Source: a virus (taxonomy: Duplodnaviria > Heunggongvirae > Uroviricota > Caudoviricetes). From it: 5,107 nt of DNA. Shown piece by piece: positions 1,904 to 4,903 of the stretch. The position numbers and the translations under genes were made by a program. Under the pieces are notes generated by a model that was not told where the DNA came from, searched no databases, and saw only the letters and a list, made by a program, of their open reading frames with translations. The DNA lies in the IMG/VR virus record IMGVR_UViG_3300000301_000108. One strand, 5' to 3'. Position 1 is the stretch's first letter, and every line of letters starts with the position of its first letter.

Positions 1904-2590
1904 TCAAAAAAATGAGCTGATAAGGGGAAGCCAATCCTCTGACACTTCGCGAGGTCGCGGTTTGCCGTGGAAAAAGATTATTCGGCAGTCTTTTGGTAAT
2001 GCCCCATTCCCCCTGGAGTAACGCGCGCTCGCATATTTCGAACCAGGTTCCACAACATCGGCCTTGTAACTTACAAACCATCCCGGATACAGATCCTGAA
2101 ATGCTGGTGTATCATCACCCATAACCTTCCGCAAAAACCCCTGATCACCCCAGCATTCAGTAGTAACACAACGAGCAATCCAACCTTCCGGATCTTGCCA
2201 GAATGCACTCCAGATATGCGCTTTTACACTATTTGGTATCCACAGGGCACCGCTGCCACGATATTGTGGATGGTAAAAATCCCTAAGCATGGTGAAGCTG
2301 GTTGGTGGATTCTCTAGGATTGGGCGTATATCACCGGCAATAACCGTGTCCAAATCCAGATAGAACAGATCATCGGTTATATCCGGTCGGAACAACTCGA
2401 TTTTCGCCCACCAGCCACGGCACTTTTGCCACTGGTTGATCAATGGGACAACTTTGACGCCAGGTACATGTAAACGCTTCAGGTCTGTCAGGCAAATAAT
2501 TTCATAGCCTTTTGGCAGTTGATTAACCAGCCACTGCACATCGGAAGCGTTATAGTCACCACCAGAGCGAAGAACTAAAGCAATCTTCAT
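1904..2590 (-). CDS. GT-A fold glycosyltransferase, GT8-like (retaining-type signature), about 229 aa
   Basis: ORF from ATG 2588-2590 to stop TGA 1904-1906. Motifs: N-terminal MKIALVLRSGGDYNA (compare GT8 starts such as LgtC MDIVFAADDNYA), DxD-type ...WWAKIELFRPDITDDLFYLDLDTVI (compare LgtC YARLKLGEYIADCDKVLYLDIDVLV), and C-terminal IFFHGKPRP (compare the GT8 H-x-G-x-x-KPW motif). The start could lie further upstream inside N-run 2594-2787. Confidence 0.7.
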   Translation of the reverse strand: MKIALVLRSGGDYNASDVQWLVNQLPKGYEIICLTDLKRLHVPGVKVVPLINQWQKCRGWWAKIELFRPDITDDLFYLDLDTVIAGDIRPILENPPTSFTMLRDFYHPQYRGSGALWIPNSVKAHIWSAFWQDPEGWIARCVTTECWGDQGFLRKVMGDDTPAFQDLYPGWFVSYKADVVEPGSKYASARYSRGNGALPKDCRIIFFHGKPRPREVSEDWLPLISSFF

Positions 2591-2666
2591 GCTNNNNNNN
2601 NNNNNNNNNNNNNNNNNNNNNNNNNNNNNNNNNNNNNNNNNNNNNNNNNNNNNNNNNNNNNNNNNN

Positions 2667-3356
2667 NNNNNNNNNNNNNNNNNNNNNNNNNNNNNNNNNN
2701 NNNNNNNNNNNNNNNNNNNNNNNNNNNNNNNNNNNNNNNNNNNNNNNNNNNNNNNNNNNNNNNNNNNNNNNNNNNNNNNNNNNNNNNAAACGATCTGCGC
2801 CAGAAATTTCGCCACCAATATCATCCATCGAATCACTGATACGCTCGCGCGCCCAGACAACGTTGAAAAGCGGCACCTCCTTACCGAATTGATATTCATT
2901 ATCCGGATAGTCGGCATGGGCTATAACGATAGTTTCTTGCCCGGTGTTCAACTCAATGATATAGGGCAGTCGTCTTACCAACTCCACCAGCGCCCTGGCT
3001 AATATTTCCTGATCAGCGTCCAGCATGAAGAACCATTGACCGCCATTCATTAGCCAGTTATTCACGTTGCCATCTGGACTTAACGCATCAATCATCAGCC
3101 GCTCATGGTTCCCCATCACTGCCCTGAACCAGGGCATCTGCAATAGTTCCAGACATTCGACATTTTCAGTACCGCGATCGATAAGGTCGCCGACCGATAT
3201 CAGTAAATCCTGCGCCGGGTCAAAATCCACACGATGGAGTTCGGACATCAGTCTGGTGTAGCAACCATGCAGATCACCAACAACCCAGACATTCCTGTAT
3301 TTGGTACCGTCGATACGGTGATAAATTGTGGGTGCCATCATGTATTCTTCAGCCAT
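2667..3356 (-). CDS. Ser/Thr protein phosphatase, phage lambda PPase (ORF221/NinI)-like metallophosphoesterase
   Basis: Translation aligns along its visible length to lambda phosphatase: [78 protein letters not shown]. It contains the PPP-family GDxHG / GDxxDRG / GNHE motifs. The C-terminal ~40 codons are masked, so the 3' end (~2667) is estimated from lambda PPase length. Start may be ATG 3356 or the downstream ATGs at 3341/3338. Confidence 0.9.
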
Positions 3357-3964
3357 TCTTTAAGAGTCATCTGCGGAATACCTCCCATTTTCCCGCATGA
3401 AACAACGTCAATCTGTTCACGCGCAGACTGGAATAACAAAGGCAGGTGACTTAGATTTTTTGGCGTGCCGCCGGAGTGAACGCGTGGTTCTTGTGTAGCG
3501 TCAACGCCCACCAGGGCGACATGTTTGAATCCGATATGGAAAGCCAGGTTCAGAGCACCATATGCACTATTGCCGCTGGCAATTTCATTCTCATCTTCGC
3601 AAAGGCCGAAATGTGCGGACCAGCGCCACGCCCACCACTCGGGAGAATTCGTATTTTTTGGCTCCGTGCCGCGCTCAGCCACACGACGGAAGCACAGAAC
3701 GCCATCTCTGACTTCACGTTCTTTAACATCGGGTAGTGCCATGCAATAACAAACACCACGGCGACGGCGGCCACGACCAACGCGCCGCATATTGTCTGGC
3801 GATGGATCAAGGGTGAAAAAATAAGAAGCGCGGTTAAGCCAGTCGATGGCCCCATTGACCGCTATAATCGGCACTCCGCGCGGCGCAACAAAGTTTGCGG
3901 CGCTTGGGCCACTGCCGACGATAATAACGCGATCACTGCCTCTAAATTTATTCTTGGGAAACAT
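3338..3964 (-). CDS. Sialyltransferase-like / DUF115 (MptE/Maf-like) fold protein, paralog A (208 aa)
   Basis: ATG 3962-3964, stop TGA 3338-3340. N-terminal motif [10 protein letters not shown]...[11 protein letters not shown] resembles the h-h-h-G-N/S-GPSL ... N motif of Cst-II-type sialyltransferases and DUF115/Maf proteins. Internal [26 protein letters not shown] matches the second conserved block of that fold. The stop overlaps the phosphatase start (TGATG). Confidence 0.75.
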
Positions 3965-4482: not shown

Positions 4483-4598
4483 NNNNNNNNNNNNNNNNNN
4501 NNNNNNNNNNNNNNNNNNNNNNNNNNNNNNNNNNNNNNNNNNNNNNNNNNNNNNNNNNNNNNNNNNNNNNNNNNNNNNNNNNNNNNNNNNNNNNNNNN

Positions 4599-4808: not shown

Positions 4809-4903
4809 NNNNNNNNNNNNNNNNNNNNNNNNNNNNNNNNNNNNNNNNNNNNNNNNNNNNNNNNNNNNNNNNNNNNNNNNNNNNNNNNNNNNNNNNNNNN
4901 NNN

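Follow-up and report, generated by a model that had tools for sequence, protein, structure and literature searches.

The methionine before GNHE in the phosphatase of P1-like phage-plasmids is the wild-type residue of its clade

The stretch of DNA considered here, referred to as the window, comprises 5,107 nucleotides of a Caudoviricetes record (IMG/VR IMGVR_UViG_3300000301_000108). It belongs to a P1-like phage-plasmid and covers the region from pmgM to pmgS on the minus strand, with 93.3-99.3% identity to the corresponding P1 region when the two are compared block by block. The phosphatase gene within it is P1 ppp, a long-annotated and already known gene for a lambda-PP-like Ser/Thr phosphatase of P1 type. 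It lies at 2587-3341 on the minus strand, as assigned by nucleotide identity, Pfam Metallophos and alignment with 1G5B, the structure of lambda phosphatase (lambda PPase). Its 516 readable bases are 97.7-98.5% identical to the ppp genes of P1, P7, RCS47, SJ46 and others, and 91.9% identical to that of phage D6. Matches to ppp number 702 records, from 683 of 5426 complete E. coli genomes, and nearly all of these are on plasmids of ~90-100 kb; many E. coli P1-like plasmids carry a metallophosphoesterase gene that is 100% identical to ppp of the window.

As in P1, ppp is flanked upstream by pmgP (3338-3964, minus strand) and downstream by the glycosyltransferase-like pmgQ (1904-2590, minus strand). 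At both junctions stop and start codons overlap in ATGA, the TGA of pmgP with the ATG of ppp at 3338-3341, and the TGA of ppp with the ATG of pmgQ at 2587-2590, and this suggests that synthesis of the phosphatase may be translationally coupled to that of two glycosyltransferase-like proteins. pmgP has a weak MptE-like match, pmgQ is annotated in P1 as a glycosyltransferase, and pmgO is annotated as a sialyltransferase-like or motility-associated-factor glycosyltransferase. In P1 the ppp operator, Oppp, to which the phage repressor C1 binds, is located just upstream of pmgN. Two start codons compete within 3339-3356. PGAP picks the ATG that overlaps the pmgP stop codon, and from this ATG, at 3341, the intact plasmid copy encodes 225 amino acids; the annotation of P1 itself uses an ATG 15 nt further upstream, at 3356 (MAEEYM..., 230 aa). 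P1 can form plaques without ppp (PMC10695390), so no argument for its function can be drawn from essentiality.

Two other features of the neighborhood are visible in the window or its close relatives. Near the 3′ end of pmgQ (~1904-1925), five codons before the stop, a T run is one base longer than in P1 and the last five residues (ERESE) are lost; plasmid pTetA_020022 has the same change, and RefSeq annotates its gene as frameshifted. In the same plasmid an IS5 element (L002:345-1313) cuts pmgM (VRR-NUC) short, upstream of the ppp operon, and the window, where readable, still aligns through the corresponding 3′ part of pmgM.

Reading of the window has to take account of five runs of N, at 720-815, 1397-1486, 2594-2787, 4483-4598 and 4809-4903, whose lengths differ from those of the sequence they replace. 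The 194 Ns at 2594-2787 stand for 117 nt, and the 90 Ns at 1397-1486 for what is about 10 nt in P1-like plasmids. Reading frames shift across these runs and the ORFs that read through them are artefacts. The run at 2594-2787 masks the last ~39 codons of ppp (~184-223), among them those for the GH motif, to which the last metal-binding His belongs. This C-terminal part, GH motif included, is intact in P1, as it is in plasmids that match the readable part at 100% identity, and with the motif under Ns it is only in relatives with an identical readable part that the full active site can be read.

Translation of the minus strand of 3090-3140 gives 17 residues that include FRAVMGNHE, just as the preliminary description of this DNA had stated. 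The codon for the Met, residue 76 of the protein and position 73 in lambda numbering, is ATG (CAT on the plus strand) and occupies 3114-3116, one base away from the 3113-3115 given there. The GNHE that follows is encoded at 3102-3113 and contains Asn78, a metal ligand, and His79, the general acid and a phosphate contact; the equivalent lambda residues, N75 and H76, are present in 133 of 133 relatives. GDLHG, with two metal ligands (lambda D20 and H22), is recognizable by motif and alignment at 3264-3278, and GDLIDRG is at 3171-3191, where Asp52 is the metal-bridging residue, Asp55 the partner of His79 and Arg56 the counterpart of lambda R53, the first arginine of the phosphate clamp. Alignment places the metal ligand His142 of the HAD motif (lambda H139) at 2916-2918 and the second clamp arginine, Arg165 of WARER (lambda R162), at 2847-2849. 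All these features are on the minus strand. The three motifs earlier said to be intact can indeed all be read in the window, as can His142 and Arg165.

Assignment to the PPP family is straightforward. The readable 183 residues score 54.4 bits against Pfam PF00149 (Metallophos; cut-off 21.5), the signature motifs GDLHG, GDLIDRG and GNHE are all present (motif definitions in PMC535813), and Arg56 and Arg165 align with R53 and R162 of lambda as the two-arginine phosphate clamp. With the window sequence completed from plasmid pTetA_020022 as query, residues 6-224 align with residues 3-221 of 1G5B (E=6.7e-95). The best NCBIfam matches, PRK11439 at 279.2 bits (cut-off 326) and PRK09968 at 238.9 bits (cut-off 332), both fall below the equivalog cut-offs, which means that the gene is an equivalog of neither PrpA nor PrpB. 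The Arg before GNHE of the 'RGNHE' PPPs (PP1/PP2A/PP2B, lambda, PrpA) is replaced by Met. By these sequence features Ppp is a bacterial PPP of lambda-PPase type, with every definable feature that is readable in the window and the last His motif masked.

Reference P1 (NC_005856) and plasmid pTetA_020022 both have FRAVMGNHE, and the same ATG codon is found in P1, the pTetA plasmid, D6, the P0017 type and P0026. A 43-nt probe centered on the codon, for which a megablast match is possible only if the codon is identical, matched at least 455 records in 453 complete E. coli genomes in its ATG form, while GTG and AGG versions of the probe had no match in this context in complete E. coli genomes. That the codon might be a sequencing error, as had been considered earlier, or else a mutation private to the window, is refuted: it is identical in reference P1, in P7-type and D6-type elements and in more distant relatives, and the records counted with the probe are independent and come from complete genomes.

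Among the best 120 homologues the residue before GNHE is Arg in 88, Met in 29, Val in two and Leu in one. All homologues of at least 75% identity have Met or Val. At 72% identity or below the residue is Arg, the exceptions being a few incomplete sequences and a single Leu variant (P0100). In the close enterobacterial group, at 60-72% identity, Arg is present in 88 of 89, and being so nearly invariant there, its change to Met was a discrete event rather than continuous drift. All 22 readable members sampled from the two largest 90% clusters have Met, and neighbor-joining groups the Met and Val sequences in a single clade, of 25 tips. Val as an alternative state of comparable standing was rejected: P0008, which has it, represents a cluster of 1905 members, yet all the members sampled have Met, so that Val is a rare variant. 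Both Val variants, P0008 and P0013, derive from few contigs, and in both the Arg at position +5 is replaced by Leu (GNHELLMLD); P0012 combines Met with the same +5 Leu.

The Met clade shares further derived residues, M79L and H92N among them, and the coincidence of clade-specific changes with that from Arg to Met might be the trace of a change in function; a 90%/10% filter for clade-specific residues is passed by ten sites. Within the clade dN/dS is 0.10-0.24 (Nei-Gojobori). P1 and P0026, which are 75% identical, have diverged to saturation at synonymous sites, and yet both keep the ATG. None of the clade members examined has lost a metal ligand or either of the clamp arginines. Met, or rarely Val, is the inherited wild type of the whole P1/P7/D6-type Ppp clade, and its fixation together with purifying selection rules out an error in sequencing and speaks against decay or attenuation of the enzyme.

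The origin of the codon is less simple than the one-nucleotide difference between AGG and ATG might suggest. A diverged P1-like element with syntenic pmgP and pmgQ of 78-79% identity has a ppp that keeps the Arg, encoded by CGT; as this is the nearest Arg-bearing relative, an origin by a single AGG to ATG step is not indicated. Met-type ppp is also present in D6-type elements (L003, L005, L006, L007), in a neighborhood other than that of P1, and its occurrence in two neighborhoods points to movement of the gene between phage backbones. In the D6-type elements it follows small lambdoid-like ORFs (DUF4752, Ead/Ea22) and precedes a DUF968/HNH gene (pdcB-like). The D6 ppp itself (L007:3947-4639 versus L005:4001-4693 and L001) looks mosaic, with N- and C-terminal parts that match the P0017-type allele and a central part, including a 14-residue stretch, that matches the P1 allele, and this pattern suggests that Met-type alleles may have recombined with one another.

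How much is to be read into loss of the Arg depends on how conserved it is in the family at large. A search of 1.84 billion representatives of 50%-identity clusters yielded 9958 relatives at E <= 0.001, and conservation was assessed in the 133 near-full-length sequences among the best 150 of these. In lambda numbering, D49, D52, R53, N75, H76 and H139 are invariant in the 133 representatives; D20 and H22 are present in 132, with one gap, H186 is kept in 131 and R162 in 128. Position 73 is quite different in character. It is Arg in 42 representatives, Leu in 26, Met in 19, Lys and Gln in 11 each, Ile in nine, Val in five and Cys in three, with rare others, which puts Arg at 32% and Met at 14%; its entropy is 2.9 bits and it ranks 117th most conserved of 204 columns. 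The view that the Arg before GNHE is conserved is thereby refuted, and in terms of sequence, as distinct from activity, Met is common among phage phosphatases, an outcome that by the preliminary description's own account tells against its reading. The Arg of 'RGNHE' is characteristic of eukaryotic PPPs and of the lambda/PrpA subgroup and is not a catalytic residue conserved family-wide.

A residue that might compensate for absence of a basic side chain at position 73 was sought in the 133 representatives with Fisher tests of residue class against basic or non-basic state at 73. None was significant, as nothing among the ~1000 tests survives correction. The best hint is a basic residue at position 78 found only where 73 is non-basic (0 of 53 versus 10 of 80; p=0.006, uncorrected). 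In the Met clade position 78 is Arg, Leu or Asp, and with this variation Arg78 is not a required substitute.

The published accounts of the lambda active site place the phosphate contacts elsewhere. The abstract of Voegtli et al. 2000 is said to name Arg53 and Arg162. Arg53 and Arg162 in 1G5B, the equivalents of Arg96 and Arg221 in PP1, have been described as a '2-arginine clamp' for the phospho-substrate (PMC8249667), and the sulfate contacts in the lambda active site named by Shuman are Arg53 and His76 (PMC2190708). For PPPs generally, the phosphate-coordinating Arg that is named is the one in GDxxDRG, and the family signature is GNH(E/D), without an Arg (PMC535813). The assertion that the Arg before GNHE contacts the substrate phosphate does not agree with these sources, the published clamp being Arg53 and Arg162, the counterparts of which are both kept in the window protein. 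The residue does appear to matter in lambda: according to Zhuo 1994, as relayed in PMC2364625, R53A and R73A reportedly lower the affinity for pNPP and phosphate and leave that for metal unaffected. The side chain at 73 is on that account of consequence in the lambda background, and a kinetic effect of Met is conceivable. This second-hand R73A statement is all that was found in the literature on a structural role of lambda Arg73 or PP1 Arg122. Arg73 is thus reportedly important for the kinetics of lambda PPase, though none of the sources consulted lists it among the phosphate contacts. Phosphatases of lambda-PPase type are characterized by Mn2+/Ni2+-dependent phosphomonoesterase activity; the literature search found no activity assay for P1 Ppp or another Met-bearing member; a paper on an anti-defense phage phosphatase (10.64898/2026.01.28.702374) concerns a Macro-domain ADPR-1′′-phosphate phosphatase and is unrelated.

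These observations are best explained, and probably correctly, by P1-type Ppp acting like lambda PPase as a competent binuclear-metal phosphoesterase, with Met76 a tolerated, lineage-typical residue at a variable position; that it is competent is inferred from ligands and a clamp that are intact and from purifying selection. Ppp would then be a lambda-phosphatase-type, two-metal (Mn2+) phosphoesterase in which Asp23, His25, Asp52, Asn78, His142 and His189 would hold the two metals, Arg56 and Arg165 would clamp the phosphate, and His79, paired with Asp55, would protonate the leaving group. Since many different residues are tolerated at this position, and neither the metal ligands nor the clamp are located there, Met76 may well have a second-shell role. 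At most it would modestly change affinity or specificity, the size of any kinetic effect being a matter of expectation. Met being normal in P1 ppp and in hundreds of genomes, and the position varying freely, the residue can be regarded as ordinary; it is no error, nor would it signal that the gene is decaying or the enzyme dead. What survives of the earlier interpretation is the difference itself, Arg in lambda PPase and PrpA versus Met here; that the Arg is a conserved, phosphate-contacting one does not, and the significance attached to its replacement was overstated.

A different interpretation holds that Arg-to-Met, fixed with M79L and H92N, retuned the P1/D6-type enzyme. Phosphate binding might have become weaker with less product inhibition as a result, or the preference might be for a phosphoester or phosphoprotein other than that of lambda PPase. 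The lowered affinity for pNPP and phosphate reported for lambda R73A, with metal binding untouched, is in keeping with this (Zhuo 1994, as relayed in PMC2364625), as are the single ancestral, clade-defining nature of the event with its several co-inherited substitutions, the persistence of the Met allele under purifying selection in both P1-type and D6-type neighborhoods, and the retention of Arg (CGT) by the syntenic sister P1-like element. Nevertheless, shared derived substitutions occur in every clade, and with ten sites passing the same filter co-inheritance is no evidence of coupling; position 73 varies greatly across the family, and no other column shows significant co-variation with it. 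Furthermore, lambda PPase has no known physiological substrate (PMC2190708) and none was found reported for P1 Ppp, so that no difference in specificity can be framed. Retuning of this sort is on balance unlikely. A bolder form of it, in which the ancestral change of Arg73 to Met with M79L and H92N defines a P1/D6-type subfamily with altered phosphate affinity or substrate preference that was selected in two phage backbones for a target other than that of lambda NinI, is a conjecture to be viewed as distinctly unlikely.

Attenuation is the remaining alternative, namely that Met cripples substrate binding and that the protein is decaying or is kept for a non-enzymatic role. The mutational sensitivity of Arg73 in lambda, reported second-hand in PMC2364625, would accord with it, and the gene is non-essential in P1 (PMC10695390). 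It is however hard to square with dN/dS of 0.10-0.24 and maintenance of Met across saturated dS, with retention of the metal ligands and both clamp arginines by every clade member examined, with the frequency of Met, Leu, Ile, Val and Gln at position 73 in the family, or with the intactness of the gene in hundreds of genomes, and it is very improbable. A correction of more general import follows: as the Arg of 'RGNHE' is not a conserved catalytic residue, its absence before GNHE should not be taken as a sign of inactivation. For the gene itself the matter is of little moment, ppp being the annotated P1 gene and Met its normal residue. If it were true that Met retuned specificity, there could be a lead on the substrates of phage PPP phosphatases, keeping in mind that nothing here requires that reading.

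Set against known systems, the window gene is the same gene as P1 ppp (P1_gp090, YP_006556.1) and the ppp/pphA of P7, RCS47, SJ46 and P1-like phage-plasmids, with the same pmgP-ppp-pmgQ order, the same ATGA overlaps and the same FRAVMGNHE. There are only a few amino-acid polymorphisms, for instance I/L at residue 86 of the 225 (lambda 83) and A/T in the MLDA/TDQ stretch, and the window copy is partly N-masked. Lambda Ser/Thr phosphatase (NinI, 1G5B) aligns over its full length, and the annotation in the P1 record puts the product at 64% identity with lambda PPase; the two proteins have in common every metal ligand, the Asp-His pair and the Arg53/Arg162 clamp. The differences are Met here for Arg73 there, the clade-specific changes that include M79L and H92N, and a genomic context that is the nin region in lambda but the C1-controlled pmg operon in P1. 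E. coli PrpA (pphA) and PrpB (pphB) have the same bacterial PPP architecture of ~220 aa. The sequences that align with FRAVMGNHE are FRAVRGNHE in lambda PPase and CAVRGNHE in E. coli PrpA, so the earlier statement that both carry Arg is borne out; before GNHE PrpB has Lys, and it is reportedly an active phosphatase (Missiakas & Raina 1997). ApaH, the symmetrical Ap4A hydrolase (e.g. PDB 2DFJ), shares the N-terminal core of GDxHG, GDxxxRG and GNH(D/E) and, like the window protein, has a hydrophobic residue before GNH, in its case Leu, but only its first ~70 residues align, and its C-terminal half and its substrate are different.
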